Of a DNA stretch of 63,618 bases, positions 683-61,982 are shown piece after piece (the first letter of the stretch is position 1; each line of letters starts with the position of its first letter). Source of the DNA: Candidatus Tayloriibacteriota bacterium (GTDB lineage Bacteria > Patescibacteriota > Minisyncoccia > Phycocordibacterales > PALSA-1337); NCBI GenBank assembly GCA_037130865.1, contig JBAXSG010000003.1, forward strand, positions 1 to 63,618, in the 5' to 3' direction. A model generated the notes under the pieces. It did no database searches, was not told the DNA's origin, and saw only the letters and a program-made list of their open reading frames with translations. Made by a program: the position numbers and the translations under genes.

Positions 683-714
<32 letters not shown>

Positions 715-2089: not shown

Positions 2090-2649
2090 CTTCATTGTGG
2101 AGGCGAATCGTATAGACTCGCCTTTGTTGTGGCAAGAAATCACTCTTGCCAACGGAACTGTGAAAGTTTTTACTAATCAAAAACTTTCGAAAAAATGGTC
2201 AGAAGGGAGGGTTTTGGACCCACACCTAGATAGTGAGCATTTAACAGCTGGTAGTTTTCGTTTCACCCCGTTTGTGATCTTCTCAAACCAGCCGTCCCGG
2301 ATAATACATACCGATTCTCACTTACCTTAAGTAAGGTCACCCGACCTTCCCCCTGATCAGAACTTAAAACTAGAGCTAGAGATGGGGAGCTGCGTCTACA
2401 TTCCGCACTGGCTCCCGATTTTCGTTCAGCACAGGCCGAACCGCGAAAGGTGTACGCCGGCAGACCGCATTATCAATGTCGCAGTTGCCGCTTCGCCCCG
2501 CTTGAAAAGCCTCGTCATTGGACATCTCATCAGCCGACCGCCATGGAGGATCGACCGAATCTTGCCTTAACGAGCACCCCACGCTCACAAAGAACTAATG
2601 CGAGATGAATATCTCGCTAAATTTGATTTATTTACTTTCCACAATGAAG
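2090..2649 (-). other. 560-nt intervening sequence replacing the loop of 23S helix 45
   Basis: The native helix GCTTGTGCG / CACACAAGC (2081-2089 / 2650-2658) is extended by the perfect inverted repeat CTTCATTGTGG / CCACAATGAAG (2090-2100 / 2639-2649), which closes the insert. Flanking sequence matches the helix-45 region (ACCGAAACTGAGGG...GGTAGGAGAGTATTC in rRNA sense). The interior holds many local hairpins and a GC-rich core at 2380-2580. Confidence 0.6.
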
Positions 2650-3341
2650 CACACAAGCCCTCAGTTTCGGTACAACGTTTGAGCCCCGATTATCTGCGGC
2701 GCGAAATTTCTCGATGAGTAAGCTGTTACGCTATTTTTGAATGGTGGCTGCTTCTAAGCCTACATCCTCATTGTCATAGAAATTTCACTACCTTAAGCGC
2801 ACTTAACGTTGATTTAGGGACCTTAAATAGAGATCTTGGGCTGTTTCCCTTTTGTCCAATGGAGCTTAGCCCCCACAGACTAACTGCTAGATAATGACTT
2901 ATTGTATTCGGAGTTTGATAGGTGTCGTGAGATTTCTCCCGTTCGAAACCTTCCAGTGCTCTACCCCAATAAGGTACATCTAACGCGAACCCAAAAGTTC
3001 TTTCGGAGAGAACCAGCTATTACCGAATTCGATTAGCTTATCACTCCTTACCACACGTCATCCGATAGTTTTGCACGGCTAAACGGTTCGGGCCTCCATC
3101 AGCCTTTCGGCTAACTTCACCCTGCGCGTGGCAAGCTCATCCGGCTTCGGGTCTTATGTATACTACAAACGCCCTATTCAGACTTGGTTTCCCTGTGACT
3201 CCGGACTCTCGTCCTTAGTCAGCAGCATACATAAACTCGTTGGCTCATTCTTCAATAGGCACGCCGTGACGGATATAAATACCCGCTCCGACTCCTTGTA
3301 GGCATATGGTTTCAGATCTATTTCACCGCCCTTCCGGGCTG

Positions 3342-3381
<40 letters not shown>

Positions 3382-4281
3382 TAGAAAAATATTTAGACTT
3401 GCCAGTTAGTTCTGGCAGATTCCCCCGAGCTTTTCGTGTCCCGGGGTACTTAAGAATAGAGACAAAGAAGGTTTTTTGTTTTCGCATACGGGACTATCAC
3501 CCACTAGGGTCGATCTTTCCAGATCATTCTGCTAACAAAAAACTTTTTGACTTCTCTGCTATAAATAGCACGTCTCTACCTTGCAACCCTCAACCAAATA
3601 AATGGTTAAGTTTAGTCTTCTCCGCTTTCGCTCGCCGCTACTTACGGAATGCATGTTTGTTTATCTTCCTCCTGGTACTGAAATGTTTTACTTCCCAGGG
3701 TACGCTCCTATTACAAAATAATAGGCAATACGAGTTCGTCGTATTAGGTTTCCCCGTTCGGAGATCTTCGGATCAAAGGTTGCTAGGCACCTCCCCGAAG
3801 CATATCGCTGCCACGCCACGTCCTTCATCGCTTTTTCTAGCCAAGGCATCCACCATACGCCCTTATATTTCCCATTAGGAAATCTAAGAACCGCTTGTTA
3901 CTTACCTACATTACTTACTTTACAAAGTCATATAAAAACCAAATACATCCACCGCTGGGTTTCATCGGTTTAAAATGACTTATCTAACTTGAAGTATGAA
4001 ATTTTCAAACAACAATCGTTCTGAAAAGAAAAACCGCTTCATTGAGCGGCTACAGGTCACGCTCCATCTCTGGAGTGTGGCTATGGCCGCGCTGTTGAGG
4101 GGTAATTCATATAATTCATTCCGTGCGCATAAGTATACTTGTAGCCATAAAAATGTCAAGGGTTTTTGCTGGTTGGCCAATATGGGGATAAGCTGGGGAG
4201 AAATAAGGAGTGCAGGCGAGGCAAATTTTGAACAAAATCTGATTATTTTTTGAACGTTTCTTGAACTTTTCTTTATCGAAA

Positions 4282-6667: not shown

Positions 6668-7156
6668 ATGTCTCGTACAAAAATACAAAAGAAAGAGATC
6701 ATTGAGAAACTCTCAAAGATTATGGATGGTGCTAAGTCTATCGTCTTCGTGAACTTTCATGGTCTCAAAGTCTTAGATGCTACAACAATGCGCCGCGCCA
6801 TGAGAAAAGATGGTGTCAGCTATTTTGTCGCCAAGAAATCTTTGACTGCGCGTGCTCTTGCTGAGAAGAAGTACTCTGGAACAATGCCAGAACTTGTCGG
6901 TGAATCTGGTATCGCCTACAGTACAGATTTGATAGCGCCTGCGCGCAATGTCTACGAATTTCAAAAGAAATTCAAGGACCAAGTCAGTATCATAGGTGGA
7001 GTGTTCGATGGTGCATATATGGATAAAGCCGGTATGATATCGATCGCTTCGATACCTTCACTCGACACTCTCCGTGGTATGTTCGTCAATGTCATCAATT
7101 CCCCTATACAAGGATTTGTCATGGCGTTAGACCAGATTGCTAAGAAGAATAAATAA
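6668..7156 (+). CDS. rplJ: 50S ribosomal protein L10
   Basis: 162 aa, L10-like sequence, immediately upstream of rplL. Confidence 0.9.
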   Translation: MSRTKIQKKEIIEKLSKIMDGAKSIVFVNFHGLKVLDATTMRRAMRKDGVSYFVAKKSLTARALAEKKYSGTMPELVGESGIAYSTDLIAPARNVYEFQKKFKDQVSIIGGVFDGAYMDKAGMISIASIPSLDTLRGMFVNVINSPIQGFVMALDQIAKKNK

Positions 7157-7157
7157 G

Positions 7158-7184
7158 GCGCAAGGTGAAAGGCGCAAAGCGCAA
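7158..7184 (+). repeat. GC-rich dispersed repeat directly after the rplJ stop codon
   Basis: GCGCAAGGTGAAAGGCGCAAAGCGCAA, identical to 7614-7640. 7-nt periodicity (GGCGCAA-like units). Confidence 0.8.
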
Positions 7185-7221
7185 TTAACCACAATTAAAA
7201 AATTAACTAATAAATAAAAAC

Positions 7222-7608
7222 ATGGAAAATACAACTGTTGAAATCCCTGCAAAGTTCAAGACACTTGTCGAAACAATCGAGAAGATGTCAGTCCTAGACT
7301 TAAACGAGCTCGTCAAATTACTCGAAAAGAAATTCGGTGTCTCAGCCGCAGCTGTTGCTGTCGCTGCTGCTCCTATTGCCGCCGCTGGTGAAGAGAAGAG
7401 CACATTTGCTGTTCACTTGGCCGCTATTGGTGAGCAGAAGATCGCTGTCATCAAGGTCGTCAAGGAAGTTTTGGCCCTTGGTCTCAAGGAAGCCAAAGAC
7501 CTCGTCGATGCTGCTCCTTCCCTCCTTAAGGATGGTATGAAGAAAGAAGAGGCTGATGCTTTCAAGAAGCAAATCGAGGCCGCTGGTGGTAAGGTCGAGT
7601 TGAAATAA
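7222..7608 (+). CDS. rplL: 50S ribosomal protein L7/L12
   Basis: 128 aa. Ala-rich hinge [18 protein letters not shown] and C-terminal [19 protein letters not shown]...AGGKVELK. Confidence 0.95.
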
Positions 7609-7613
7609 ATAAA

Positions 7614-7640
7614 GCGCAAGGTGAAAGGCGCAAAGCGCAA
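7614..7640 (+). repeat. GC-rich dispersed repeat directly after the rplL stop codon
   Basis: 27-nt copy identical to 7158-7184. The preceding AATAAATAA(G/A) context is also shared. Confidence 0.8.
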
Positions 7641-7663
7641 GTAATCGTAAAGTGTGCGAAAAA

Positions 7664-11523: not shown

Positions 11524-11568
11524 AAAATATGGTTGATTATTATTAATACAGCCATAATAAAACACCAA

Positions 11569-11618
11569 GATAAAATCCTGGTGAAAAAGTTATGAAGAAA
11601 TGCTCAAAAAGTTCTCAA
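11569..11618 (-). promoter_or_regulatory. 50-nt conserved intergenic motif (copy 1), putative promoter
   Basis: GATAAAATCCTGGTGAAAAAGTTATGAAGAAATGCTCAAAAAGTTCTCAA is ~90% identical to 22408-22457. In minus orientation it reads TTGAGA-N18-CATAAC, 45-95 nt upstream of the 11523 start. Confidence 0.4.
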
Positions 11619-11823
11619 CTTTTGTTCAAGACAAGAATTGCTCAGGGTTTGTATTGCCCAACAAAATATATGATCACAAAACTGATGAATAAAATAAATA
11701 CAAAACCAATCAGGAACTTGAAGAATGTTCTATCAAAAGGGTTTTTCATATCTATATTCTATCAAAAAATCGTCCTCTCTGTTTGCCTTTGGAGATCTCA
11801 TCTTATTCCTATCAGACCAAAAC

Positions 11824-22215: not shown

Positions 22216-22407
22216 AGTTTTTTGCAGTCAGTGCTCCGCTTAAAATAAATCTGCGGAATCCTTCTCTACTGTAGAATGGCCTTATTAAGCCATATATACA
22301 ACAAATCAGGAACTTACTGCGATTACTTGTAATGCCATGAGATTAACACAAAACTTCATCCTCTGCAATGGTTTTAATGAGAGGACCACAATATCATAAA
22401 CCTTAGA

Positions 22408-22457
22408 GATAAAATCCAGATGAAAAAGTTATGAAGAAATGCTAAAGAAATTCTCAA
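22408..22457 (-). promoter_or_regulatory. 50-nt conserved intergenic motif (copy 2), putative promoter upstream of rpsF
   Basis: GATAAAATCCAGATGAAAAAGTTATGAAGAAATGCTAAAGAAATTCTCAA has 45/50 identity to 11569-11618. Confidence 0.4.
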
Positions 22458-22502
22458 ATATCGCTCAAAAATACATAAAAAGACTTTGGAGAGCTCCGCC
22501 GA

Positions 22503-30652: not shown

Positions 30653-31240
30653 CTAGAGATGTGACTCTTTCAAGGCCTTGTTGATATGCTGATTTATTGA
30701 GGTTCTCTTGCGCATAGCCAGATCCAATAGACTTGGCGTGAAGTCATTTGAATAGATAAAGCCATGAATATCCTTGTCATCACCAATATAGCCGAGCGTA
30801 TGCAGGATGCGAATCACTAGAAGGGATTCGACAGTATCGAGATCTGGCTTTTTATCGATATCAACTTCCTTCAGAAAAGTATTACATGCGAGAAGTGCAT
30901 CAAACAGCTGTGCGTTTGCTTCTTCACCTTGTAAAAGTCGGCGCAAGAGGACGGAGATCTGCGCCCAGAAAGATTGAACCAAGCCATCGTTGTTTGGGGA
31001 GCTAGCGAAATTGCTCTGCGCACTGGTCAATCTCCAGACCTCTTTTCCTCGGACCAGAGAAAATGTTCCGAATGAATAATCAGTTGTATGATAGCGTAGT
31101 TTCGATTTCTCGAAACGAATTCCTTGTGCCACCGCTCTCACCAATCCCATTTCTCGTGTAAAAATCGATATGAGTTTTCCCGCTTCGCCATATTGGCCGG
31201 AACCGACAATAAAACCTGGAGTTGTGTAAATGGCGTGCAT
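30653..31240 (-). CDS. recO: DNA repair protein RecO
   Basis: 195 aa, RecO-like N-terminal OB region. Start codon overlaps the ileS stop (TAATG). Confidence 0.7.
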   Translation of the reverse strand: MHAIYTTPGFIVGSGQYGEAGKLISIFTREMGLVRAVAQGIRFEKSKLRYHTTDYSFGTFSLVRGKEVWRLTSAQSNFASSPNNDGLVQSFWAQISVLLRRLLQGEEANAQLFDALLACNTFLKEVDIDKKPDLDTVESLLVIRILHTLGYIGDDKDIHGFIYSNDFTPSLLDLAMRKRTSINQHINKALKESHL

Positions 31241-34200
31241 TAGTTCAACTTGATCTTCATAGCAATATCCCCAATCTTTAACGCCTCGCCGCTGACATTT
31301 TCACCTGCAACACTCCCCCATTCAATACCTTTCAACAAAGTCGCACGAGATATTGTATCTTTGTTCTTTTCGATAAATTTGTGGCCAACTTCATCAGTTT
31401 CAACAACGATAGTAGCTTTGTCATCTATAGTGAGGCCTTTTTCTTTGCGAAGATCCTGAATAGCACGGATGAGTTCACGAACCATCCCCTCTTCTTTGAG
31501 CTCCGCAGTCATAGTGACATCTAGTTCAACACTCAATCCAACTGTATCTTGCGCCTCGAATATAACTTCTTTTACATTTACTTCGTCCGCGATAATCGAA
31601 ATCAGATCTTTAGTTAAAACTCCTTGTTTCTTATCTTTTAATGACTTGACCTTGAGAGACTGCAGCGGCTGACGAACATTTATCTTGGCAGACATGCGAG
31701 CTTCGAGACCTTGAGAAGCTATTGTACGCACAAGTTTCATGTCAGCAAGTAGTTCTCCGTCTGTCTTTGTAAGTTTGTCCGCGGTTGGCCATGACTCCAG
31801 ATGTACACTTTCGAGACTTCCAGCTACGATTCCACCACCAACTCTGTTATATATATCCTCTGCAACAAAAGGCATAAATGGTGCCATTATTTTAGCAGTC
31901 TCCATAAGCACAAACTTTGTGGTCTCAAGAGCCGCATTTTTCTCAACCAAATCTTCGGCCTTGAAACGATCGCGTGAGCGACGCAGATACCAAGTAGAAA
32001 GATCGTCCACAAGATCCATAAATGGACGTGCGGCGCGATCCAGCTCACCAGCTTCCAATCCGGCAGTAACTTGGGCAATGGTCTCATTTAGACGCACGAT
32101 AATCCAGAGATCGAGGACATTCTTGCTTGCGCTTTGCGATCCACTTTCCCCTTGCGCCTTGCGCCTTTCCCCTTCATTCCCATACATTTCATAAAATGAA
32201 ACTACATTGAGTAGACGGTTGATTACCTTCTTCGTCACTTCGTCTACACCCTTCTCACTGAAGCACAGGTCTTGTGAATGGACGACTGGTGAAGACATGA
32301 GGTAATATCGGAGCGCATCGGCGCTATATTTCTCTACGATTAACATCGGATCGGGATAATTCTGTTTCGACTTCGACATCTTCTCACCATCTTCGGCAAG
32401 GACCATACCATTTACCAAAACTTTCTTGTATGGAGACGTGCCAAACAAAGCCACTCCAAGTACGAGCATACTGTAGAACCAACCACGTGTCTGATCTTGT
32501 CCTTCAGCTATAAAATCAGCTGGGTAAGCCCTGGATCTACGGAATAATCCGCCTAGTACATTACTTCGAGGATCAAACTTCTTGATATCACCAAATGGAT
32601 AATGATTCGATGCCCATGGCATAGCACCGGATTCGAACCAACAATCGAAGACATCTGAAACACGCGTAAGTTTATTGCCATTTTCTGTACGCAATTCTAT
32701 CTCATCGATGAAAGGACGATGTAGGTCGAGCTCATAGTTGGAGTTGTGAGGAAGTGGAATGAAATCAAGTGCACGGAACTCGGCATTATTTAGATAATTA
32801 TCTTTTTCATATTCAACTGTTTCCATATCACTAAAGCCACGACAGACAGCTGTTAAAACAGTCGCAGGACCACCATGAGTAACTATAAGAATAGTCTTGC
32901 CGGAATATTTACTTTCCATGTCATACATAAATTCACCGATACGCTTCCTAATATCAGAATAATTCTCACCAGATTTTGGACCTTTCGTAAAAGCATCTTC
33001 GGTATGGAATTCCTTGCCGAAATCCTCGACTAGCTTGCCCTCCCATTCACCCATAGCCCTCTCATGCAGACGATTGTCCGTGACTATCGATATTTTCTGG
33101 CCCAATCCACGCAAACCAAGACCATCAGCAACTATTTTAGCGGTCTCTTGTGTCCTCATAAATGGCGAAGCAACAATCGTATCTATGCCAAACTTCTTGA
33201 TTGAAGCTGCAGACTTTTTTACTTGTTCTCTACCAACTGCTGTAAGATGATTCGTCTTTTGTGGATCGCCATTCAAAGTCCCGACGACATTTCCCTCTGA
33301 CTGACCATGTCTCATGACATAGTAAGTATTTTTTGCTTTTGAATATTTCTTAATGTCGGCGAGCGAACCAATAATATGCAGCTCACTTGCGCCTTGCGTC
33401 TTGCGCCCTTCCCCTTCTTCGCGCCATACCGGAATCGGAGCGCCCCAAAAACGAGAACGAGATATAGCCCAGTCGCGAGCACCTTCCAACCAATTACCAA
33501 ATCTACCAGAACCAACTTCCTCTGGAACCCAAGATATTTTTTTATTTACTTTGACCAACTTTTCTTTTATGGCTGTGACTTTCACAAACCAAGAAGAAGA
33601 GGCGTAATTGATAAGCGGAGTCTCACAGCGCCAACAATGCGGATATGAGTGCACCAGCTTCTCTTTTTCAAAGAGTTTTCCGCTGTGTGCCAACCATTTT
33701 ATAACTTCAATATCGGCGTTCTGATGCGCATTTTTATCTTCTGGGGTATCTTTCGGCTTCACATGTTGTCCAGCGAAGTCTGTCACCTCTTTTTTGAATG
33801 TACCATCTACAGCCACATGTTGGACAAATGGCAGGTCATACTTCTTGAGCAAGTCGTAATCATCTGCACCAAATGCCGGAGCAATATGCACGATACCAGT
33901 ACCATCTTCAGTGGTTACGAAATCCGCCGCGTAAATCTTCCAGCCATTTTGAGCATTTTTTAGCCCTTTATCGCCAGCACCGCTGGAATTGCGAGAATAA
34001 TAATCAAATAGTGGCTCATACGAAAGTCCGACGAGATCAGATCCGTGGATTTTCTCGACTATCTCATACGGCTTATCTTTAAATGTCGCAGCTAGTCGTG
34101 ATTCCGCGACTATATAAGTCTCACTAGCTGAACCTATTGGTGTATTTTCCGTAGCAACCAGATGAACTTTTACATAGTCGATTTTCGGATTCACCGCCAG

Positions 34201-34929
34201 AGCTACATTCCCTGGCAATGTCCACGGCGTCGTCGTCCAAGCAATCAAGTAGGTTGCGCCCCGCGCTTCACTTTCGCCTTGCGCCTTGCGCTCTGCGCCT
34301 TCATTAACCTTAAACTTCACATAGACAGAAATATCCGTGATGTCTCTGTATCCCTGCGCTACCTCGAAGTTCGAAAGTGTAGTCTCACAACGAGGACAAA
34401 GATTCATGGACTTGAATCCTTCATAGATCAAACCTTTGTCATACAAATTTTTGAATATCCACCAAACGCTTTCAGTGTAAGACGAGTCCATGGTGCGATA
34501 GTCATGATTCATATCCACGAAACGACCGAGACGTGGTATGACCTTGCGCCATTCGTCTGCGTAACGCATAACGCTTCCACGTGCGGTCTCATTGAATTTT
34601 CCAATACCAAAATCTAGAATATCTTTTTTCGACTTTAGTCCCAACTCTTTTTCAATAAGATTTTCCACTGGTAGACCATGACAATCCCAACCCCAACGAC
34701 GCGCCACGTGATAGCCTTGCATGGTTTTGTAGCGAGGTATGACATCTTTCATCGTGCCAGCCAATAAATGGCCGTAGTGCGGCGTACCAGTAGCAAATGG
34801 GGGCCCGTCATAGAAGGTAAATTCGCCCTTCGGTGCCTTCTTCTCCAGCGTCTTTTCAAAAATACCCTTCTCTTTCCAGAAGGACAATATTCGCTCTTCG
34901 CGGTCGCTATGCGTACTCATGATGAGCAT
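31240..34929 (-). CDS. ileS: Isoleucine--tRNA ligase carrying an inserted histidine-phosphatase domain and three short repeat-derived insertions
   Basis: 1229 aa. HIGH-type PHYGHLLAG, WAISRSRFWGAPIPVW, DCWFESGAMPWA, KMSKS. See the separate domain and repeat features. Confidence 0.93.
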   Translation of the reverse strand: MLIMSTHSDREERILSFWKEKGIFEKTLEKKAPKGEFTFYDGPPFATGTPHYGHLLAGTMKDVIPRYKTMQGYHVARRWGWDCHGLPVENLIEKELGLKSKKDILDFGIGKFNETARGSVMRYADEWRKVIPRLGRFVDMNHDYRTMDSSYTESVWWIFKNLYDKGLIYEGFKSMNLCPRCETTLSNFEVAQGYRDITDISVYVKFKVNEGAERKAQGESEARGATYLIAWTTTPWTLPGNVALAVNPKIDYVKVHLVATENTPIGSASETYIVAESRLAATFKDKPYEIVEKIHGSDLVGLSYEPLFDYYSRNSSGAGDKGLKNAQNGWKIYAADFVTTEDGTGIVHIAPAFGADDYDLLKKYDLPFVQHVAVDGTFKKEVTDFAGQHVKPKDTPEDKNAHQNADIEVIKWLAHSGKLFEKEKLVHSYPHCWRCETPLINYASSSWFVKVTAIKEKLVKVNKKISWVPEEVGSGRFGNWLEGARDWAISRSRFWGAPIPVWREEGEGRKTQGASELHIIGSLADIKKYSKAKNTYYVMRHGQSEGNVVGTLNGDPQKTNHLTAVGREQVKKSAASIKKFGIDTIVASPFMRTQETAKIVADGLGLRGLGQKISIVTDNRLHERAMGEWEGKLVEDFGKEFHTEDAFTKGPKSGENYSDIRKRIGEFMYDMESKYSGKTILIVTHGGPATVLTAVCRGFSDMETVEYEKDNYLNNAEFRALDFIPLPHNSNYELDLHRPFIDEIELRTENGNKLTRVSDVFDCWFESGAMPWASNHYPFGDIKKFDPRSNVLGGLFRRSRAYPADFIAEGQDQTRGWFYSMLVLGVALFGTSPYKKVLVNGMVLAEDGEKMSKSKQNYPDPMLIVEKYSADALRYYLMSSPVVHSQDLCFSEKGVDEVTKKVINRLLNVVSFYEMYGNEGERRKAQGESGSQSASKNVLDLWIIVRLNETIAQVTAGLEAGELDRAARPFMDLVDDLSTWYLRRSRDRFKAEDLVEKNAALETTKFVLMETAKIMAPFMPFVAEDIYNRVGGGIVAGSLESVHLESWPTADKLTKTDGELLADMKLVRTIASQGLEARMSAKINVRQPLQSLKVKSLKDKKQGVLTKDLISIIADEVNVKEVIFEAQDTVGLSVELDVTMTAELKEEGMVRELIRAIQDLRKEKGLTIDDKATIVVETDEVGHKFIEKNKDTISRATLLKGIEWGSVAGENVSGEALKIGDIAMKIKLN
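32121..32176 (-). repeat. GC-rich dispersed repeat inserted in frame in ileS (encodes NEGERRKAQGESGSQSAS)
   Basis: rc reads GAAGGGGAAAGGCGCAAGGCGCAAGGGGAAAGTGGATCGCAAAGCGCAAGC. 7-nt periodicity, and it shares the GCGCAAGGNGAAAG core with 7158-7184. Confidence 0.7.
32755..33327 (-). other. Histidine phosphatase (phosphoglycerate-mutase-like) domain embedded in IleRS (about aa 535-725)
   Basis: YYVMRHGQSEGN (RHG catalytic motif), ASPFMRTQETA, ERAMGEWEG, ILIVTHGGPA (second His). Flanked by the IleRS segments IGSLADIKKYS and ELDLHRPFIDEI. Confidence 0.75.
33384..33425 (-). repeat. GC-rich dispersed repeat inserted in frame in ileS (encodes REEGEGRKTQGASE)
   Basis: rc reads GGCGCGAAGAAGGGGAAGGGCGCAAGACGCAAGGCGCAAGTG. 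Confidence 0.6.
34252..34305 (-). repeat. GC-rich dispersed repeat inserted in frame in ileS (encodes NEGAERKAQGESEARGAT)
   Basis: rc reads AATGAAGGCGCAGAGCGCAAGGCGCAAGGCGAAAGTGAAGCGCGGGGCGCAACC. Confidence 0.65.
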
Positions 34930-41513: not shown

Positions 41514-42026
41514 TTATGTTGGCGCAACCTCGGGAGATACTTGCTCAGCTGCTTCGAGTTTCTGACGCTTCTCTACCCATTCAGCTACAGACGCAAATAT
41601 GCCGTCGATAGCAAAATACTTAATCGGATCTGGCATCTCCGTGGCCTTCAGGTCAAATGGACTTGTGCGTCGCTGCCGATAGTACATTAGACAGCTTTCA
41701 ATCCAATTGGAGACACTCCCTTTGTGAGGAACGAATATCCTAATCGGTTTGCGAAGCTCGCAACGCCAGACAATTTCAGACACTAAGTCGTCTTCCATAC
41801 TGTGGTACACGACGACGACCAGATCAGCAGTATTCACATTAGCCAGGACTTTACCGAAGGCATCAGAGGAATTCTCACTTTCTCCGATTACCACACGCCC
41901 CCAATCATGGAGTACCTCCACATTCGACAATGCATTTATTCGTGCACGTAGATTCGTCATACCGACGAAAAAGTTGGCTTGGGTACATCCTGTTGAATAC
42001 GCTAATAATATCTTAATCGTTTTCAA
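41514..42026 (-). CDS. Hypothetical protein (possibly nucleoside 2-deoxyribosyltransferase-like Rossmann fold)
   Basis: 170 aa. The fold guess rests only on the pattern VVVVYHSMEDDLVSEIVWRCELRKPIRIF. Confidence 0.5.
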   Translation of the reverse strand: MKTIKILLAYSTGCTQANFFVGMTNLRARINALSNVEVLHDWGRVVIGESENSSDAFGKVLANVNTADLVVVVYHSMEDDLVSEIVWRCELRKPIRIFVPHKGSVSNWIESCLMYYRQRRTSPFDLKATEMPDPIKYFAIDGIFASVAEWVEKRQKLEAAEQVSPEVAPT

Positions 42027-43330: not shown

Positions 43331-43644
43331 GTTTTTGATGATTTTGTTTAATGTCGTGGCGCCAGCCCTGCGGCGGCGATTTCTATTAAAAAACCCCTGC
43401 TGGGGTGGTTACGATGAGTATAGTAGCACGAATTGGATAAAAAGCAAATAACTTAAAAATCAACAAAAATACCGTCTTCATGACAGTACTTTTGTTATGC
43501 CTGCTTTCGGCTTAGGAATTCCTTAGCTGAACGGGGCTTACGCCCACAGGCATAATCACAGTATACCAGATCTTGTTTCTAATAGTAATTTCTACTGACG
43601 ATTATTAGCCACAAAATCTCTCCTGAGGTATGGGTACCTACTTT

Positions 43645-43812
43645 AAAACAGCCTTTTAGAAATAATCTATCCACGAGGTACCTAAGCTTAAGCTACACAT
43701 AGGCAACTGTTTAATTGTGACTATTCCGTGCTAATAAACCCAGTAATATATAGGGAGTACCTCGGCTATAAATTATTTCTAAAAGGCTGTTTTGGAGGTG
43801 GGTGTGTCCCGG
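43645..43812 (-). repeat. Hairpin element copy A (MITE-like or structured RNA), directly 3' of the DGR template repeat
   Basis: 22-bp perfect arms AAAACAGCCTTTTAGAAATAAT (43645-43666) / ATTATTTCTAAAAGGCTGTTTT (43772-43793). Inner stem CGAGGTAC / GTACCTCG. ~80% identical to the inverted copy at 61506-61665, including the flank GGA(G/A)GTG..TGTGTCCCG. Confidence 0.8.
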
Positions 43813-43922
43813 CGGCACTCTTGCCGTTTCGGACCGCTTAAATTACCTTTAGATCGATAACGCAATCCATAAACAAAACTCCCTCGAACTGGATATACCC
43901 AGACGAAGGAGAAATGAAAAGA

Positions 43923-44055
43923 TTTGCGGAGAGCGAAGACCCAGTGGTTGTCGCCATTCCAAGACTTGCGAGGCTTCGCGGTGTTCGTGTTCAGCTTGAG
44001 CTCGGCACCATTCCGGTTCAGGTTGAAGACGTTCGGGTTGCCATCACGGTCATTA
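43923..44055 (-). repeat. DGR template repeat (TR)
   Basis: 133-nt ungapped match to 44401-44533. All 18 mismatches are T on the plus strand here (A on the minus/sense strand). Not inside a credible CDS. Confidence 0.9.
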
Positions 44056-44300
44056 TGTATAGGATGCCATCCATGCCACCACCCTTAGAAACCGCACAAT
44101 GGCGATGATCTCGGGGTTGAATCGAATTTGGTATCATAATACCCTAGCATCTATACCAAGTATCTTCATTTTTTGAAGTGTCTACATAAGCCCTCCGTCT
44201 GAAGCCGTAACCGCAGACGCTCTCAGCTTATGGATACTGGATTCGGTAGCCGGAAGCCTTGACCGCCGGCATATTCACCTACTACCACGACTAGTATAAC

Positions 44301-44325
44301 AAAACTGCGCGCCAAAGGCGCGCAG
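44301..44325 (-). terminator. GC-rich hairpin plus T-run downstream of the DGR target gene and VR
   Basis: CTGCGCGCC-AAA-GGCGCGCAG (44305-44325). On the minus strand it is followed by TTTT. It lies ~75 nt 3' of the VR end. Confidence 0.6.
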
Positions 44326-44397
44326 TTAAGAGCAAAGTTCAAAGTGTCAAAGTGCAAAAATGCAAGAACAAAGTGACTGAAGGACTAAGTACTGAAG

Positions 44398-46248
44398 CTA
44401 CTTGCGGAGAGCGAAGACCCAGCGGTAGCCGCCATCCCAAGACCTGCGAGGCTCCGCGGTGCTCGTGTGCAGCCGGAGCTCGGCACCAACCCGGTACAGG
44501 TAGAAGACGTGCGGGTAGCCAGCACGGTCATTAATAGGCTTCATTCCAATAAATGTCCAATCTGATATGGAAGTAACAAGTCTTAATCTTGGTCCAACTT
44601 CCGGAGAACATAATTCCAAACCCATTTCCTCTGCTCTCTTGTAAATCTCCTCTGTAGTCGCGGTATCTGAAAATCCCATATCTTTGACCGTAAGTCTCAC
44701 AAGGTCGACCTGTTCAGTATTCTCCGAAGTTTGGAAATCTCTACTGTCCATCAAATATTTTGCATATGAATAAACCTGGATATTTTTCTCTTTGAGCTCT
44801 TTTTTAAGATTATCTTTCGATTTTCCGCCAATTTCGATATTATATTTCTGGATTTTTCCTTCTGGAAATGAGGTGTAAATGTGCTCGAGGCCACGCTTGA
44901 AGACGCCTGGGAAAAGTTTGCCTATGTAGGCTTTGGTGTTTTCTTTTACATCTTCTGGTGTAACAGCGATCTGGTCTGAAGAACATCCAAGCACGATTGG
45001 CGCGTCTTCTTTTGGATTACGGGTTTTTCTCAACTCAGTAATGCGAGGATCTCTATCGTAACCGAGGCCTTCGATAGTAGCCTCGATTTCGTAAAGGAAA
45101 ATAAGGTCGTCTTTTGTAAATTGTTCACTCTTTTCTTGTTTCTTCGTAAGCTCCGTCATTTTCTTCATATCCGCCGACTTCTTATCGAACTTTTCCCCAC
45201 CTGGCAATGAATGATATTTCTCTGTGGCAACATCTACCAGAGCTGGTTCAAGTTCTTGACGATGATTGACACCCCGGACCTCGGCAACGCTGTCGCCTTC
45301 CATCCTGATGGCAATTCTAGGCTCAGAATAGACGCCCGATTTACCACGAGTGAAATATACCCAGAAATCACCACCTTGGAGATGAGCAGGCGCACTTCCC
45401 TCAGCAGTACACCAACCTGTACCTTTGCCATGCAAAGAATCCTCCAGTTTGTGATAATCCGAACCTTGAGGATATTTCACCCATTCACCTTGAAGCGATT
45501 CACGGTTGAGTGCGCCAGCCGTTTCTATCTGGGCAAATGTGTAGAGTTTTATGAAATCTTTCTTTTCAATAAGATTGGCTAGTTGTTCGCGCCTATCCGG
45601 AGTATTGATGAATTCTTGATGTCCAATACCAGTGGTAAGCATACGGTATACGAAGCCTAGTGCTTCCGAGTTTACTTCAGGAAACGGAGCTATCGTATAG
45701 TCAGTTCTCTTTCCATATTCACCCTTTTCTTTGTCCAATGCCCCCATCTTCTGTAGATTACGGACCACAAAATACCTGAACCATGTCGGATAATGGCCGT
45801 CATTTTCTTCAAGATAGTCCAGCCATGAACCTAAAGTCTTTTCTTGTATATCGTGCTTTTCCTTGGTAAGTCCTTTGTAACGCTCGATGATACCACCTTG
45901 TTCTCCGAGTTCATCATCTATTCTGGCGACATCATTGCCCCTTCCTTGTTCTATTGCTAGCCGTTTTTCGGATTCATAAAGACCGGTAGCAATCTTAGTC
46001 ATGGTTTCTTCATCATCTGTATCTATAACAAACTCTTTTATGATTTTGTTTTTGAGGAGTTCCCAACCGCGTTCATCCTTCACTATACGGTCAAGCCTAT
46101 CCAGATACGCTTGAATACGCTCAGAACGATCATGTGGAGCGAATTTCCTCTCTGGATCGTGCATAGCTTTTTTTACCGCGCGTTCCACGGGTTTTGATCC
46201 CGGCATGTCTGGATATTTTTTGTCTAAGAATTCAGGTTTTTCTGACAT
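44398..46248 (-). CDS. DGR target protein (variable C-terminus), N-terminal region of unknown function
   Basis: 616-aa ORF. The last 44 codons are the VR. The C-terminal ...RSWDGGYRWVFALRK resembles the ends of CLec-fold DGR variable proteins. Confidence 0.85.
   Translation of the reverse strand: MSEKPEFLDKKYPDMPGSKPVERAVKKAMHDPERKFAPHDRSERIQAYLDRLDRIVKDERGWELLKNKIIKEFVIDTDDEETMTKIATGLYESEKRLAIEQGRGNDVARIDDELGEQGGIIERYKGLTKEKHDIQEKTLGSWLDYLEENDGHYPTWFRYFVVRNLQKMGALDKEKGEYGKRTDYTIAPFPEVNSEALGFVYRMLTTGIGHQEFINTPDRREQLANLIEKKDFIKLYTFAQIETAGALNRESLQGEWVKYPQGSDYHKLEDSLHGKGTGWCTAEGSAPAHLQGGDFWVYFTRGKSGVYSEPRIAIRMEGDSVAEVRGVNHRQELEPALVDVATEKYHSLPGGEKFDKKSADMKKMTELTKKQEKSEQFTKDDLIFLYEIEATIEGLGYDRDPRITELRKTRNPKEDAPIVLGCSSDQIAVTPEDVKENTKAYIGKLFPGVFKRGLEHIYTSFPEGKIQKYNIEIGGKSKDNLKKELKEKNIQVYSYAKYLMDSRDFQTSENTEQVDLVRLTVKDMGFSDTATTEEIYKRAEEMGLELCSPEVGPRLRLVTSISDWTFIGMKPINDRAGYPHVFYLYRVGAELRLHTSTAEPRRSWDGGYRWVFALRK
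44401..44533 (-). repeat. DGR variable repeat (VR)
   Basis: See TR. VR peptide NDRAGYPHVFYLYRVGAELRLHTSTAEPRRSWDGGYRWVFALRK versus the TR-encoded NDRDGNPNVFNLNRNGAELKLNTNTAKPRKSWNGDNHWVFALRK. Confidence 0.9.
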
Positions 46249-56559: not shown

Positions 56560-58371
56560 TTATTTGAATCCGTCGTTGCGACGAGCTTTTGCCTTGTCCA
56601 AAACCGTGAGTAACTTCTTGCGCAAACGCACATTCTTCGGAGTGATTTCTAGATATTCATCACCACGCATAAGTTCCAAACCACGCTCAATATCCAGCTT
56701 GTAAGGCGGTGTCAGAAGCAATGCTTCGTCAGTACCAGATGAGCGCATGTTCGTGAGCTGCTTTCCTTTGCAAGGATTTACTTCCATATCTTCGCCGCGT
56801 GCAACATCACCAACGACCATTCCTTGATAGACTTCAACAGCGGGATCGATAAAAAGTCTTCCACGGTTTTGTAGATTCCAAAGGGAGAATCCGAGCGATT
56901 TTCCGGAAACCATGGAGGTCATTGAGCCAGTCTCGCGCTTTTGGATCTCACCAGCATAAGGACGGAATTCTATGAATCGGCTAGCAAGTATTCCCTCGCC
57001 TTTTGTGTCTATGGTAAATGCATTGCGATAGCCGAGTAATCCGCGAGTTGGAATCTCGAAGAGCATGCGCGTAAGTTTCTCACGAGTCTTCATCTCTGTC
57101 ATAAGAGCTTTGCGCTTGCCGAGCTTTTCTATGACAGCTCCGGAATATTCCTCTGGTATGTCTATTGTCAATTCTTCAAAAGGCTCCATCTTCACAATAC
57201 TGCCATCGGCGGCTTTTTCATCCTTCACGATAACTTCTGGTTGTGAGACTTGTAGTTCATAACCTTCACGACGCATGTTTTCTATGAGAATAGCCACATG
57301 CAATTCACCACGACCATAAACTTTAAAATAATCATTTGCAGAAAAATCAACTTTGAGACCAACGTTGATCTCCAGTTCTTTCTCTAAACGCTCGCGAATC
57401 TGGCGACCAGTGACGAAAGTTCCCTCTTGGCCAGCAAATGGTGAATTGTTCACCAAAAAGTTTAGCGAAATAGTTGGCTCATCGATCTTGATAGCTGGCA
57501 ATGCCTTCGCATCTGTGGAATCAGCTATAGTCTCACCGATATATATGTTCGGTAATCCAGCGATCATGACAATATCGCCAGCAGCAGCTTGTGCTACTTC
57601 AACACGCTTCTTACCTTCGAAAGTGAAAAGTTTGGTTATTTTTCCAGTAAATGTCTCTCCATTTATATCTTTTACAAAAACATTTTGACCATCGCTGATG
57701 ACACCGTCATAAACTCTGCAAACACCGAGACGGCCAAGGAAATTGTCATAACCCAAGTTGAAAACTTGAGCCGCGAGAGGCTTCGTAGCTTGCTCTGGAG
57801 TATTGGCTGGTGATACGTGCTTCAAAATAGTATCAAGCAAAGGTGTAAGGTCTTTGGCTTCATCTTTCAAGTTCATAACAGCAGTTCCTTGACGACCAAT
57901 TGCATAGACGGTAGGAAAATCTATCTGCTTGTCGTGCGCACCAAGTTCCAAGAAAAGTTCCAACACATGTTCATGTGCTAGATTTGGATTGGCGGCTGGC
58001 TTGTCGATTTTGTTAATAATCACTATCGGCTTTAAACCGAGTTCTAGCGACTTCTTCAGCACAAAGCGTGTTTGTGGCATAGGGCCTTCTTGAGCATCCA
58101 CCACGAGGAGCACACAGTCGATAGAACGCAATACACGTTCAACCTCTGAGCCGAAGTCCGCGTGACCTGGAGTGTCAACGATGTTGATCTTTGTACCTTT
58201 GTACATAACCGAAGTATTCTTCGCATATATCGTAATGCCGCGTTCTTGTTCAAGAGCGTTCGAGTCCATGCTCCCTTCATCCGCGTGACCACACTGCGTC
58301 ATAATGGCGTCAGTGAGCGTCGTCTTTCCGTGGTCGACGTGAGCGATGATTGCGATGTTTCGGATTTCCAT
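56560..58371 (-). CDS. typA: Translational GTPase TypA/BipA
   Basis: IRNIAIIAHVDHGKTTLTD, DTPGHADFG, NKIDK. Start taken at MEIRNIA. Confidence 0.95.
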   Translation of the reverse strand: MEIRNIAIIAHVDHGKTTLTDAIMTQCGHADEGSMDSNALEQERGITIYAKNTSVMYKGTKINIVDTPGHADFGSEVERVLRSIDCVLLVVDAQEGPMPQTRFVLKKSLELGLKPIVIINKIDKPAANPNLAHEHVLELFLELGAHDKQIDFPTVYAIGRQGTAVMNLKDEAKDLTPLLDTILKHVSPANTPEQATKPLAAQVFNLGYDNFLGRLGVCRVYDGVISDGQNVFVKDINGETFTGKITKLFTFEGKKRVEVAQAAAGDIVMIAGLPNIYIGETIADSTDAKALPAIKIDEPTISLNFLVNNSPFAGQEGTFVTGRQIRERLEKELEINVGLKVDFSANDYFKVYGRGELHVAILIENMRREGYELQVSQPEVIVKDEKAADGSIVKMEPFEELTIDIPEEYSGAVIEKLGKRKALMTEMKTREKLTRMLFEIPTRGLLGYRNAFTIDTKGEGILASRFIEFRPYAGEIQKRETGSMTSMVSGKSLGFSLWNLQNRGRLFIDPAVEVYQGMVVGDVARGEDMEVNPCKGKQLTNMRSSGTDEALLLTPPYKLDIERGLELMRGDEYLEITPKNVRLRKKLLTVLDKAKARRNDGFK

Positions 58372-58446
58372 AATAATAGGCGCTTGCGCGCGGAGGTGTA
58401 ATTTAATCAAAAAAAGAGGCTTTTGTAAAGGGTTCCGTAAGATTGA

Positions 58447-59412
58447 TCACAGATTTTTGATACACCGCTTCAGTTTCTGTGTATTTCCATGACTCAATAG
58501 ACCAAGATAAGACTGAACAATTTCCGGTTTTTTCGGATTCTCTTCCAACCTATTCAACATTCTCTTCTTTGTAGTTGTGCGTAGCGTCTTATGATCAGGA
58601 AAATGAACCCAGCCAAGGAAATCGATCCCTGAAGCGAGAGTTGTAATGCTCAACTTTTTAGGATGAAGCTGTAAAGCCAAATCGTCTGCCAAGAACTTTT
58701 GAATCATTGGAACGATACCGACTAACCAGTCTTTGTCTGTATTCATAATGACAAAATCATCTGCATAACGGATGTAATATTCCGCTCTTATGGCCTGCTT
58801 CATAAAATGGTCAAACTTATTCATGTAGATATTTACGAGCAGTTGCGATGTGAGATTTCCAAGAGGTAATCCTTTTACTGGTGCGACACCCTTGAAACTT
58901 TGCACCACATTCTGGATGAGCCAAATAACATCTAAATCGACAACATATTTCTCTAATATGTGTATAAGAATATCTTGGTCAATAGAAGCAAAAAACTTTT
59001 TAACATCGCACTTCAAAACCCATAGCGTCTTTGTATGATTTTTACTGGCTACGCGAGAGAAGTGAGTAAATCTTTTCAATGCTCGATGAGTTCCTCGTCT
59101 TTTCCTGCATGAATATGAGTCGTAGATAAATGTAGGATCAAAATACGGATATAATCGACGATAGATCGCGTGTTGAAGCAGTCTATCTCGGACCGAGGCT
59201 TTATGAATATCCCTCTCTTTTGGCTCAAATACTTTGAAATGATGATAGTCGCCATGAGCATATGTCTTATTTCTCAAATCCTCGTGCAATCCAAGAATGT
59301 TATCAGCCAATCTATATTGAAAATCTTGAACATCTTTCTTTTTTCGTTTGCCTTTCAAAAATTCTTTCCAGGCAGCGAGCAAATTATCGGTAGAAATGAT
59401 ATTGTTATACAT
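58447..59412 (-). CDS. DGR-type reverse transcriptase
   Basis: 321 aa. RT motifs include GLPLGNLTSQLLVNIYM (DGR-diagnostic [LIV]GxxxSQ) and IRYADDFVIM (YxDD). No intron-RNA or maturase features. Confidence 0.88.
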   Translation of the reverse strand: MYNNIISTDNLLAAWKEFLKGKRKKKDVQDFQYRLADNILGLHEDLRNKTYAHGDYHHFKVFEPKERDIHKASVRDRLLQHAIYRRLYPYFDPTFIYDSYSCRKRRGTHRALKRFTHFSRVASKNHTKTLWVLKCDVKKFFASIDQDILIHILEKYVVDLDVIWLIQNVVQSFKGVAPVKGLPLGNLTSQLLVNIYMNKFDHFMKQAIRAEYYIRYADDFVIMNTDKDWLVGIVPMIQKFLADDLALQLHPKKLSITTLASGIDFLGWVHFPDHKTLRTTTKKRMLNRLEENPKKPEIVQSYLGLLSHGNTQKLKRCIKNL

Positions 59413-59484
59413 TATTATTGAAGTAATTTAATATTATGACCGAAATAAAAACACAAACCGTTATGACCCCCCCGCTTAGTTCCT

Positions 59485-59844
59485 GTGGTGCTAAAGTTGA
59501 AAGATGCCTACGGCGTTTGGCAAGATTGCCTCTCTAGCTTTCCGAAGGCGCATCGCTTTACTATCGGCTCGAAGATAGACACTCTATTCCTTGACGCTAT
59601 CGAGCATGCATTCGTCGCAAGCTACACGAATGTCGCAGAGAAACAACCGCATATAAATATCAGTATAGTTAAAGTTGATCTGATCAAGCTCCTTCTGCAG
59701 CTAGCTTGGGAAATAAAAGCTATAGACAATAATAGATATATGACCTTATCTGAAAACTTCGCAGAAATAGGAAAAATGCTTGGTGGCTGGAAAAGACAAC
59801 TGATAAACAAAACTCCTGCAGACAAGCCACAGGAGAAACGTTGA
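59485..59844 (+). CDS. avd: Avd-like four-helix-bundle protein (23S rRNA IVS protein family)
   Basis: 119 aa (GTG start). FPKAHRFTIGSKIDTLFLDAIEH..., ...LSENFAEIGKMLGGWKRQL. Divergent from the RT gene with 72 nt between them. Confidence 0.75.
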   Translation: MVLKLKDAYGVWQDCLSSFPKAHRFTIGSKIDTLFLDAIEHAFVASYTNVAEKQPHINISIVKVDLIKLLLQLAWEIKAIDNNRYMTLSENFAEIGKMLGGWKRQLINKTPADKPQEKR

Positions 59845-60335
59845 TAGTAGCGAACGGCCAGGAAGCGATAGTTGGAGTTCCAATCATTGTCCCACCAACT
59901 GAGGTTGAGGCCCCGCGCCGAGCTGCCCCCGAACAAGTACGGGACATGGCGGAAGACATAGACCCTGCCAACGGAGCCGAGAGCAATGATCGGATTGCTG
60001 CGTTGTGCGTCGGGGTTCAATTTTCCGAACACAAGCAAATGAGCCAACCGGGCCGGCATCCACGGGTTGTTTGCGTCATCGCCCTTCATGCGTTCAATTG
60101 CATCAGGTGACGACACCGAACCCTTCGGATCCCAGAGATTGTATTCCCATTCACCGCCATCTTCGGCAGTGATCGGAAACCGTTTCTCCGTGATGTCGTC
60201 GTCGAACCAGTTGTTGGCGCACTCGGCCAACAGGGTTTTGAAGCCTTTGGTCGGATCGACGAGCATGGTGTTATTGTCCATGGTCAGTCCTTTCTTTGAA
60301 ACGGCTTTGGGGCCGGCTGTTTGTTTTGGCATCAA
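59845..60335 (-). CDS. Candidate second DGR target (small, GC-rich, CLec/DUF1566-like C-terminus), possibly degenerate
   Basis: The ORF 60335..59622 has an expected end near 59850: ...FGGSSARGLNLSWWDNDWNSNYRFLAVRY resembles the target-1 end (..WVFALRK). No stop codon follows, so the frame runs 220 nt antisense into avd. The segment is clearly GC-richer than its flanks. Confidence 0.45.
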
Positions 60336-61425: not shown

Positions 61426-61505
61426 CATTTAATACTTATTCAGGTTGATGAGGTTTTGTCCTCATTGGGGGCTTTTTCATTTTAGGCTAGTAAAGGGTGT
61501 GATCG

Positions 61506-61665
61506 GGACACATACACTTCCAAAACAGCACTTTTGAAATAATTTACAGCCGAGGTACCGCCTATATATTACTAGGTTTATTGGCACAGAATAGTCACTG
61601 TCATCGAGCTGATTATGTGTGGCTTAAGCTGAGGTACCTCGTGGATAAATTATTTTAAAAACCCT
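61506..61665 (+). repeat. Hairpin element copy B (inverted relative to copy A)
   Basis: CGGGACACATACACTTCCAAAACAGCACTTTTGAAATAATTTACAGCCGAGGTACC...GGTACCTCGTGGATAAATTATTTT. The outer right arm is degraded and overlaps the last codons of the chorismate mutase gene. Confidence 0.75.
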
Positions 61666-61982
61666 TTTTTAAAGTGCATGCTCACCCCTCGTCGCCAAAC
61701 GACGCCCTGCACATCTCTCGAATCCTTGAATATGTGCCTAAAGATTTTTCTCACAAGATCTGCGCTTACGCCGACTTTTTTAGCTAGATCAGCTTTCTTC
61801 TCCAGAATCTCCCGTTCCCTTTCTGGTTGATATATCTTGAGGCCATTTTCTTTTTTATATTTTCCAATCACAGCCGAACAATCGCGCCGCTTGGCCAAAA
61901 GCTCAACTATTTCAATGTCGATCTTATCTATTTCTTTGCGTGATTTTTCCAGTTTCATTTTCAGTTTCATTTTCATTTCCAT
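61650..61982 (-). CDS. Chorismate mutase (AroQ class)
   Basis: 110 aa. LEKSRKEIDKIDIEIVELLAKRRDCSAVIGKYKKENGLKIYQPEREREIL. Confidence 0.8.
   Translation of the reverse strand: MEMKMKLKMKLEKSRKEIDKIDIEIVELLAKRRDCSAVIGKYKKENGLKIYQPEREREILEKKADLAKKVGVSADLVRKIFRHIFKDSRDVQGVVWRRGVSMHFKKGFLK

Follow-up and report, generated by a model that had tools for sequence, protein, structure and literature searches.

A probable split diversity-generating retroelement in a Patescibacteria contig, with its template repeat embedded in a conserved structured RNA

Here, we provide evidence that a 63,618-nt stretch of DNA from a Candidatus Tayloriibacteriota bacterium (contig JBAXSG010000003.1; hereafter the window, which is only part of the genome) encodes a diversity-generating retroelement (DGR) of the Patescibacteria, or candidate phyla radiation (CPR), clade. 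A non-coding template repeat (TR1) lies beside the gene of a 616-aa target protein, a member of a family here called TGT, which ends in the matching variable repeat (VR1); genes for a reverse transcriptase (RT) and the accessory protein Avd lie 14.4 kb away. The element is a genuine DGR, and we consider the fuller reading, a split layout in which the TR1 RNA works on VR1, probable at roughly 0.75. Two parts of this reading are held less firmly: the RT-Avd pair at 58447-59844 is somewhat favoured as the partner of TR1, and we lean slightly towards a TR1/VR1 system that is active now or was so very recently. The initial annotation of this DNA had already called a DGR from the letters of the repeats, and the call is upheld by the adenine-only mismatches, a second VR allele, the DGR-type RT and Avd, and about 35 homologous loci; the remote RT and Avd, the structured RNA around TR1 and the broken cassette at the RT locus formed no part of that annotation. 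DGRs are, to our knowledge, the only means by which prokaryotes naturally hypermutate selected proteins. They are most abundant in the CPR, and as far as we know the targets and RNA requirements of DGRs in this group are almost unstudied. The first survey of DGRs in CPR/Patescibacteria is reportedly that of Paul et al. in 2017.

The direct repeat 43910-44055/44388-44533 was the sole repeat of at least 40 nt of its kind in a search of the whole window. A computed alignment of 43923-44055 with 44401-44533 is ungapped and has 18 mismatches in 133 nt, exactly as had been counted by hand. At every mismatch the upstream copy reads T on the plus strand, corresponding to A on the minus strand that encodes the target, whereas the gene copy carries C at nine of these sites, A at five and G at four. 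TR1 contains 36 adenines on the minus strand, half of which (18/36) are changed, and none of the remaining 97 positions differs; the initial annotation was thus accurate both on the base specificity and on the altered fraction. The hypergeometric probability of placing 18 of 18 mismatches on 36 adenines among 133 positions is 1.1e-12. One of these mismatches (43923/44401) is the outermost aligned base, stands at the edge of homology and possibly belongs to the flank; the core (43924-44055) has 17 mismatches in 132 nt, all at A. Stretching the alignment to 43910 gains five non-A mismatches, all of them in the flank.

The adenines of TR1 are concentrated at the first two codon positions, with 16 at position 1, 19 at position 2 and one at position 3 (35/36 at position 1 or 2). 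Read as codons, TR1 gives an Asn-rich pseudo-peptide that begins NDRDGNPNVFNLNRNG and includes 10 Asn AAY codons; its 21 A-containing codons could specify about 10^20.6 peptides. Both peptide strings reported earlier, for the template and for the gene version, were recovered without change, and the assignment of VR1 to the last 44 codons of the 616-aa open reading frame (ORF) at 44398..46248 was correct for the minus strand. The upstream copy is non-coding, as had been stated: no minus-strand gene lies there, and the copy is embedded in a conserved structured RNA. The final 21 nt are identical in TR1 and VR1 (43924-43944 and 44402-44422), with complete divergence beyond. Because the ends are identical over these 21 nt, the discrimination between donor and recipient (IMH versus IMH*, the initiation of mutagenic homing sites) would, as far as the alignment tells, have to sit in the flanks. 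A repeat search and a relaxed blastn found no second TR or VR copy in the window that is related to TR1 or to the 3' end of G2, a second type of DGR target described below.

A second VR allele comes from contig L010 (labels of this form denote related loci or contigs that were compared with the window). It stems from another sample (ERZ19026949), is 95% identical in DNA over 2.1 kb and encodes a target homologue (P0001) with 94% identity. The L010 VR differs from the window's TR1 at 19 sites, 19/19 of them template adenines. It differs from VR1 at 21 sites, all A-templated, and the gene 5' of the VR differs at 48 of 1716 nt. One template sequence has thus written two different VR alleles.

Related loci were collected in two surveys, one anchored on TGT, with 80 loci screened for adenine-biased repeats, RT and Avd, and one anchored on the RT, with 62 relatives that had enough upstream sequence. 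In about 35 of the 80 TGT loci, a TR and a VR of 120-150 nt were found, 75-100% of their mismatches lie at template adenines, and homologous avd and RT genes adjoin the pair. In the standard layout of these loci, the target with its VR is followed after 300-500 nt by the TR and, 10-60 nt farther on, by avd, which is encoded on the opposite strand, and then by RT on the TR strand; at times the TR-avd-RT module is turned around with respect to the target. The layout of the window, with target and TR and no avd or RT within 10 kb, recurs only in L021 and L057 among these loci. Among the RT homologues (43-78% identity), an adenine-biased TR ends at most 800 nt upstream of the RT start in 54 of 62; at the RT locus of the window there is neither an intact TR nor a leader RNA of the kind described below. 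The order TR, antisense avd and RT of the standard layout is architecture B3, which is found in 90% of CPR DGRs (Wu et al. 2018, PMC5758913) and occurs in L092, L094 and the approximately 35 TGT loci. In the window, avd is divergent from RT and the 3' part and hairpin of a second template (TR2) stand in the B3 position, but fused to G2. From these comparisons, the window layout is real but is that of a minority among its relatives. In the survey of Wu et al., the TR is 'usually' adjacent to the RT, and 45 of 372 DGRs have non-adjacent targets (PMC5758913). The same paper cites experimental work in which avd, TR and brt of Bordetella function in trans from a plasmid.

The two hallmarks of DGR RTs, [I/L/V]GxxxSQ in motif 4 and YxDD, are both present in the RT at 58447-59412, and a six-frame motif scan of the window found LGNLTSQ and YADD together in this one ORF only. 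No second RT was seen within the window. Against NCBIfam, the best match of the RT is a group II intron RT model, below the cut-off of that model, and Avd matches NF033474 (DivGenRetAVD) with an E-value of 8.7e-18 and 64.6 bits, below the cut-off of 80. Both ORFs are intact, and comparison with a relative gave dN/dS values of 0.08 for RT and 0.01 for avd. Besides the target gene, the 14.4 kb between TR1 and RT hold housekeeping genes (about 12 kb), among them those for SIMPL, a methyltransferase, VKOR, DsbA, an RNB-family ribonuclease, L19 and BipA. No RT adjoins TR1, the 3' side of which on the minus strand consists of 592 nt of non-coding DNA followed by secE, nusG and rplK, and a hidden Markov model (HMM) of 32 Avd sequences found no avd remnant in the six-frame translation of 43331-43960. 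A 14-nt identity between 43869-43882 and the 3' end of avd was considered as protein homology and rejected, as it reflects a hairpin and U-tract RNA element common to both places. The layout recurs in independent assemblies, the ENA and Logan assemblies, made independently, agree in sequence without a difference, and the TR1 and RT neighbourhoods each recur in independent assemblies (L001/L002 and L006) that overlap between the DsbA and methyltransferase genes.

TR1 is flanked on both sides by conserved RNA elements. The 228 nt 5' of the TR, aligned from 35 loci, are strongly conserved, with an invariant ACTTGGT, and RNAalifold predicts 43 base pairs in six helices, 34 of them with compensatory changes. 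In this alignment 93.2% of the cells are paired, versus 34-47% when partners are slid by 1-3 columns, and cells with double changes number 331 versus 52-78 in the slid controls; none of 500 shuffles attained the observed values. In domain A (helices 1-3), 87-97% of the cells are paired and 18 of 22 pairs have compensatory changes. Conservation continues farther upstream (region 44057-44270), so that the leader measures at least 190 nt. The single-sequence fold of the 391-nt unit is not significantly more stable than those of shuffles (z -1.1), and covariation alone is the evidence for structure.

A covariance model of linker and domain B (R1) has a single match in the window (44050-44206, minus strand, 105 bits). 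It also matches TGT loci outside the training set and sequences directly 5' of the TR in G2-type cassettes, and yields 45 further matches in 85 additional DGR loci with other targets. Wherever both an R1 match and a TR were mapped, the match abuts the 5' end of the TR. The RNA accompanies the TR in about 90 loci with several unrelated targets (e.g., L114:5303-5456 and L092:3024-3185). On the 3' side, 11 nt past the TR, every locus has a GC hairpin that is preceded by U-rich sequence and followed by a U tract. An automatic scan picked up this element in 32 of the 35 loci, and its stem sequences vary between them. In compact cassettes, the 3' arm of this hairpin and the U tract are the antisense of the C-terminal codons of avd. 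The 3' elements of TR1 and of the TR2 remnant share the frame TTTCTCC-hairpin-GGAGTTTTGTTTAT.

No Rfam family reached its gathering score on the window or on seven relatives, and an E-value scan (E up to 1) of seven further loci gave no match to an RT family. RT-9 was rejected as the identity of the leader: the match at 44160-44221 scores 23.3 bits against a gathering score of 46.1 and does not recur in the relatives scanned. The leader and hairpin RNA was likewise not found in Rfam or the literature surveyed. Among the RT-associated motifs RT-1 to RT-19, RT-10 is the Bordetella spacer downstream of the TR (Weinberg 2017, PMC5737381). We infer a discrete TR1 transcript with the leader at one end and the terminator-like hairpin at the other, both of which would serve as recognition and priming elements for RT-Avd. 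A discrete TR RNA with such handles would make action in trans, and hence genomic separation, mechanistically easy. The coordinates of these elements and of the other features are listed in Table 1.

Table 1. Features of the retroelement and its surroundings (positions in the window)
Feature	Position	Strand	Description
TR1 template repeat	43923..44055	-	Non-coding; ungapped match to VR1, all 18 mismatches at TR adenines
VR1 variable repeat	44401..44533	-	Covers the final 44 codons of TGT
Target gene TGT, 616 aa	44398..46248	-	Conserved Patescibacteria family; C-terminal domain of ~190 aa bears the VR
Hairpin and T tract, intrinsic-terminator-like	44303..44327	-	11 pairs, 8 of them G-C; tail TTGTTATACT
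Domain A of TR leader RNA	44177..44238	-	Nested helices; conserved loop CGGYYAMGGCTT
A-rich linker with invariant ACTTGGT	44157..44176	-	From aligned leaders
Domain B of TR leader RNA	44057..44156	-	12-bp long-range helix closing two hairpins; ends 1 nt before TR
Hairpin and U tract after TR1	43869..43911	-	CTCCTTCGTCTGG GTATAT CCAGTTCGAGGGAG TTTTGTTTAT; 11 nt past TR; terminator-like
Reverse transcriptase, DGR type, 321 aa, intact	58447..59412	-	LGNLTSQ, YADD; Pfam RVT_1 5.9e-28
Avd accessory protein, 119 aa	59485..59844	+	Divergent from RT; Pfam bAvd PF22296, 52.7 bits (cut-off 40)
G2 gene, second DGR target type	59622..60335	-	Stop lost; ORF continues antisense through avd
VR2/TR2 chimera, 3' end of G2	59847..59978	-	Base-by-base comparison with L092
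TR2-type hairpin and U tract	59803..59835	-	CTCCTGTGGCTTGTCTGCAGGAG TTTTGTTTAT; overlaps the 3' end of avd, opposite strand

The RT locus itself looks like a broken cassette of the G2 type. G2 is a small family (21 homologues) whose members normally end in ...YRFLAVRK(VKKS)* with a hypervariable C-terminus. The syntenic relative L092, with 87-92% nucleotide identity, 98% amino acid identity in Avd and 93% in an RT that is seen on L091/L099, represents a complete cassette of two tandem G2 targets, leader RNA, TR2 and antisense avd. Its TR2 differs from its two G2 VRs at 19 and 14 positions, all of them adenines, and L094 and five metagenome loci resemble it. In the window, the part of the G2 3' end at 59898-59978, together with its 5' flank, is VR-like, with 15 changes at TR2 adenines and one at a G; the part at 59847-59897 is identical to the undiversified TR2 of L092, and the 3' flank is the TR2 hairpin and U tract, followed by antisense avd. 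The stop codon of G2, the terminator and the leader are missing at the chimera, where R1 finds no match. Recombination between VR2 and TR2 would explain this structure. The chimeric junction is present in four assemblies from three pipelines (L001-L004), and a metagenome pattern scan recovered no intact TR2 of the window strain (five loci, all from other strains). As collapse of VR and TR does occur in such assemblies (scaffold L091, with an N gap), the chimera reading is tentative and needs confirmation. G2-like ORFs that run into an undiversified, TR-like, Asn-rich end were also observed in L081 (7440-7700) and L093 (3050-3290; compare L092:3173-3309), and either recurrent recombination between VR and TR or recurrent assembly collapse could have produced them.

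Stages of DGR decay can be seen in relatives at L013 (2091-2400), L022 (12078-12370) and L101 (3300-3860). L013 and L022 have a truncated RT or none at all, and their TR/VR pairs contain 12 and 19 non-A mismatches, respectively. L101, the closest RT relative (78%), has kept the RT and a G2 target and lost avd and TR. Judging from these loci, cassette decay is evidently frequent in this lineage.

In the reading that we favour, parts of the two cassettes would function together. Briefly, TR1 would be transcribed within a self-contained non-coding RNA that starts with the structured leader (domains A and B; at least 190 nt), continues with the template of 132 nt and closes with the hairpin and its U tract. 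The RT-Avd complex would reverse-transcribe TR1 and misincorporate opposite adenines, and the resulting cDNA would replace VR1 (44401-44533), thereby recoding up to 21 C-terminal codons of the 616-aa protein. The TR1 RNA would act in trans, with the enzyme supplied from 14.4 kb away by a pair that by ancestry would derive from the neighbouring G2-type cassette, whose own template would have been lost through the VR2/TR2 fusion. A shared enzyme is suggested by the common 3' frame of TR1 and the TR2 remnant and by the leader RNA family common to both cassette types, as well as by the intact RT and avd with their low dN/dS values. Present or recent activity is supported by the absence of non-A mismatches between TR1 and VR1 (0/97), versus the 12 and 19 of the decayed L013 and L022, and by the different VR alleles of two close relatives. 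A broader proposal would be that the template in this clade is a free-standing small RNA gene, made up of a covarying two-domain leader of a new RNA family, the TR and a terminator-like hairpin, with its main handle upstream of the template, opposite to the Bordetella arrangement, and recognized in trans by RT-Avd, so that template-target modules could part from their enzymes and be served by the RT-Avd of another cassette, here a G2-type one with a destroyed template. We offer this generalization only tentatively and would sooner bet against it than for it.

Several observations weigh against the proposed mechanism. TR1 is not adjacent to the RT, against the norm of the clade; a promoter scan revealed no convincing promoter for the TR RNA; and the fold of the VR-bearing domain is not confidently that of a C-type lectin. 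In sequence, the RT and Avd of the window stand nearer to their counterparts in G2-type cassettes (RT 62-63%, Avd 66-67% identity) than to the pairs adjoining TGT targets (RT 52-60%, Avd 29-42% identity), and their compatibility with the TR1 RNA is therefore uncertain. Further RT-Avd pairs may exist elsewhere in the genome, of which the window is a part. Present activity in particular is put in question by the recurrence of the exact target protein, including the VR, on seven contigs from at least four samples, with no DNA difference in the gene; the consensus VR therefore appears to be stable among those samples.

The same observations could describe an orphaned, inactive DGR, whose cognate avd and RT were lost when the cassette broke up, whose VR has become fixed, and in whose neighbourhood the RT belongs to a decaying G2 cassette only. 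TR1 is unlinked from avd and RT, unlike in about 33 of 35 related target loci, and the invariant VR of the seven contigs, the G2-type phylogenetic position of RT and Avd and the frequency of decay in the lineage (L101, L013, L022 and the fused TR2 of the window) all fit such a history. We nevertheless consider it unlikely. Neither VR1 nor the L010 VR has a non-A mismatch among the 97 positions, where about 2.7 would be expected from the 2.8% divergence of the gene (P ~0.07) and where the decayed relatives have accumulated 12-19. All 36 adenines of the TR, the leader (105 bits with R1), the 3' hairpin, the RT and avd are intact. The VRs of the 95%-identical relatives differ at 21 A-templated sites, and homing would therefore have taken place after or around their split.

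We are similarly doubtful of an alternative in which the TR1/VR1 system is active but served by another RT-Avd outside the 63.6-kb window, with the RT at 58447-59412 irrelevant to TR1. The limited share of the genome in the window and the grouping of its RT and Avd with G2-type cassettes speak in favour of such an outside enzyme, as does the metagenome-assembled genome E14_metabat.bin.256, in which the TGT homologue L053 and L141, an RT that has a cassette of its own, are on separate contigs. However, one RT only is visible in the window, the features shared by the two cassette types (the 3' frame of TR1 and the TR2 remnant, and the leader RNA family) connect its RT-Avd with TR1, and an RT-Avd pair without a usable template would not be expected to remain intact. 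Finally, an assembly duplication, which the initial annotation had named as what would overturn its call, a diverged segmental duplication or a gene-conversion tract has a negligible chance of being the true origin of the repeat pair: VR/TR collapse is seen in the data (L091), but 18 of 18 mismatches fall on one base of one copy (P 1e-12) and lead to three bases, the second VR allele behaves likewise, independently made ENA and Logan assemblies contain the identical sequence, and homologous loci have the same repeat geometry together with RT and avd.

The target of the retroelement belongs to a family that is restricted to Patescibacteria, with at least 1380 homologues and 508 matches among 185,579 species-representative genomes. 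Neither the window protein nor any of 78 aligned family members has a Pfam match, and the window protein has no NCBIfam match. It has no signal peptide and no transmembrane segment (maximum Kyte-Doolittle mean over 19 residues, 0.61), and because of the lack of a hydrophobic segment and the hydrophilic N-terminus it is probably cytoplasmic. AlphaFold models are confident, with a predicted local distance difference test score (pLDDT) of 88.5 for the full-length protein, and a pLDDT of 96.4 and a predicted template modelling score (pTM) of 0.91 for the C-terminal 189 aa. Foldseek searches of the PDB with the full-length and C-terminal models gave a best match with an E-value of 0.19, none below 0.1, and template modelling (TM) scores of 0.35-0.45. 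These weak top matches are nearly all C-type lectin-like domains (EMS16, rhodocetin, BDCA2, MCL, NKG2D and CD72), and Mtd, TvpA and other solved variable proteins are absent from the fold-search matches. The C-terminal model had no match in BFVD, and a sequence-profile search of the PDB with the target gave none either. On the basis of the models, the VR-bearing domain may be a very divergent C-type lectin variant or something else. Because G2 and partial TGT matches turn up in other cassettes (L116 and L122), the sequences suggest a variable C-terminal module common to different N-terminal domains. The GC-rich hairpin about 70 nt past the target stop codon (44303..44327) has the look of an intrinsic terminator, and could also be a post-VR hairpin. 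Another 616-aa ORF of the window (56560-58410) was considered as a paralogous target and rejected, as it encodes the unrelated GTPase TypA/BipA.

Two copies, 79% identical, of an element that resembles a miniature inverted-repeat transposable element (MITE) are present at 43625-43822 (plus strand) and, inverted, at 61493-61690. The element spans about 175-198 nt and has inverted arms of 37 nt. One copy lies about 50 nt past the TR1 hairpin and the other between tRNA-Val and a chorismate mutase gene; the element also occurs in L091, and its 25-nt core had no match in a scan of genome representatives. This 198-nt inverted-repeat element was rejected as the cause of the split, as inversion of the intervening segment leaves TR1 away from avd. 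The Logan contigs L007, L008 and L009, from three independent assemblies, all stop exactly 141 nt past the target stop (~44256), where the conserved TR leader begins, a shared end point that could stem from a similar leader elsewhere in the genome (a second TR unit) or from local polymorphism.

The window has several other notable features. The 23S rRNA gene (636-3877, minus strand) is 3242 nt long, compared with 2925 nt in the bacterial model, owing to an insertion of about 300 nt. Introns or expansions have been reported in rRNA genes of CPR bacteria, and this insertion may be one of them. An ORF of 170 aa (41514-42026, minus strand) without a Pfam match follows secE-nusG-rplK, at the usual site of rplA (L1). 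It may encode a divergent L1 or a replacement for it; alternatively, this organism may lack L1. Repeated sequences include a 52-nt GCGCC/TTGCGC-rich motif with three copies (32127-34305) inside the 1229-aa ORF at 31240-34929, a 41-nt GC-rich intergenic repeat with two copies (7148-7188 and 7604-7644), and a 76-nt sequence common to 11554-11629 and 22393-22468, upstream of two unrelated genes.

The DGR of the window belongs to a well-documented CPR clade and is not surprising in kind; less ordinary are its split layout and its RNA. These findings leave the established DGR mechanism unchanged. They add a large uncharacterized and apparently cytoplasmic target family, with a variable domain that does not confidently match solved folds, and a natural case of a template and target that lie apart from RT-Avd, which RT-anchored DGR finders that search only the vicinity of the RT would miss or mis-assign. 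The conserved RNA around the TR is a testable candidate for an RT-Avd recognition element beyond the Bordetella model.

With other CPR DGRs (B3 in Wu et al. 2018, PMC5758913; clade 2 in Roux et al. 2021, PMC8144416) the system shares the host group and the components: an RT with [I/L]GxxxSQ and YADD, an Avd divergent from the RT, and a single C-terminal VR of about 130 nt. CPR targets are without transmembrane segments or known domains (Roux et al. 2021, PMC8144416), and TGT is likewise. In contrast to the CPR cassettes of its relatives, in which the TR stands past the 3' end of avd on the RT strand, TR1 travels with its target 14.4 kb away, and the template proximal to the RT appears to have been destroyed by the VR2/TR2 fusion.

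Rfam motifs RT-1 to RT-19 (Weinberg 2017, PMC5737381) are, like the RNA described here, structured RNAs beside bacterial RT genes, and their authors speculated that more RT motifs belong to DGRs. None of them, RT-9 and RT-10 included, reaches its gathering score on the window or on the seven relatives scored in this way.

The DGR of Bordetella phage BPP-1 (mtd-avd-TR-brt) is similar in that it depends on RT and Avd and mutates a C-terminal VR at sites that are adenines in an invariant TR. Its cDNA synthesis requires RNA segments on either side of the template (bioRxiv 10.1101/2023.10.23.563531), and the TR of the window is likewise flanked by RNA. However, avd, TR and brt are co-oriented in BPP-1, whereas avd is antisense in the window. 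The Sp spacer, which is the main structured element of BPP-1 (Rfam RT-10; PMC5737381), is found downstream of its TR, whereas the window has its large domain upstream and a short hairpin downstream. Furthermore, no IMH/IMH* difference is seen inside the repeat of the window, with its identical last 21 nt, and its target is not a phage tail fibre. DGRs with remote targets, as in Treponema and a Legionella lineage, resemble the window in that their components act across kilobases. In those systems, however, the VR is remote and the TR stays beside the RT, whereas in the window TR and VR are together and the RT-Avd pair is remote.

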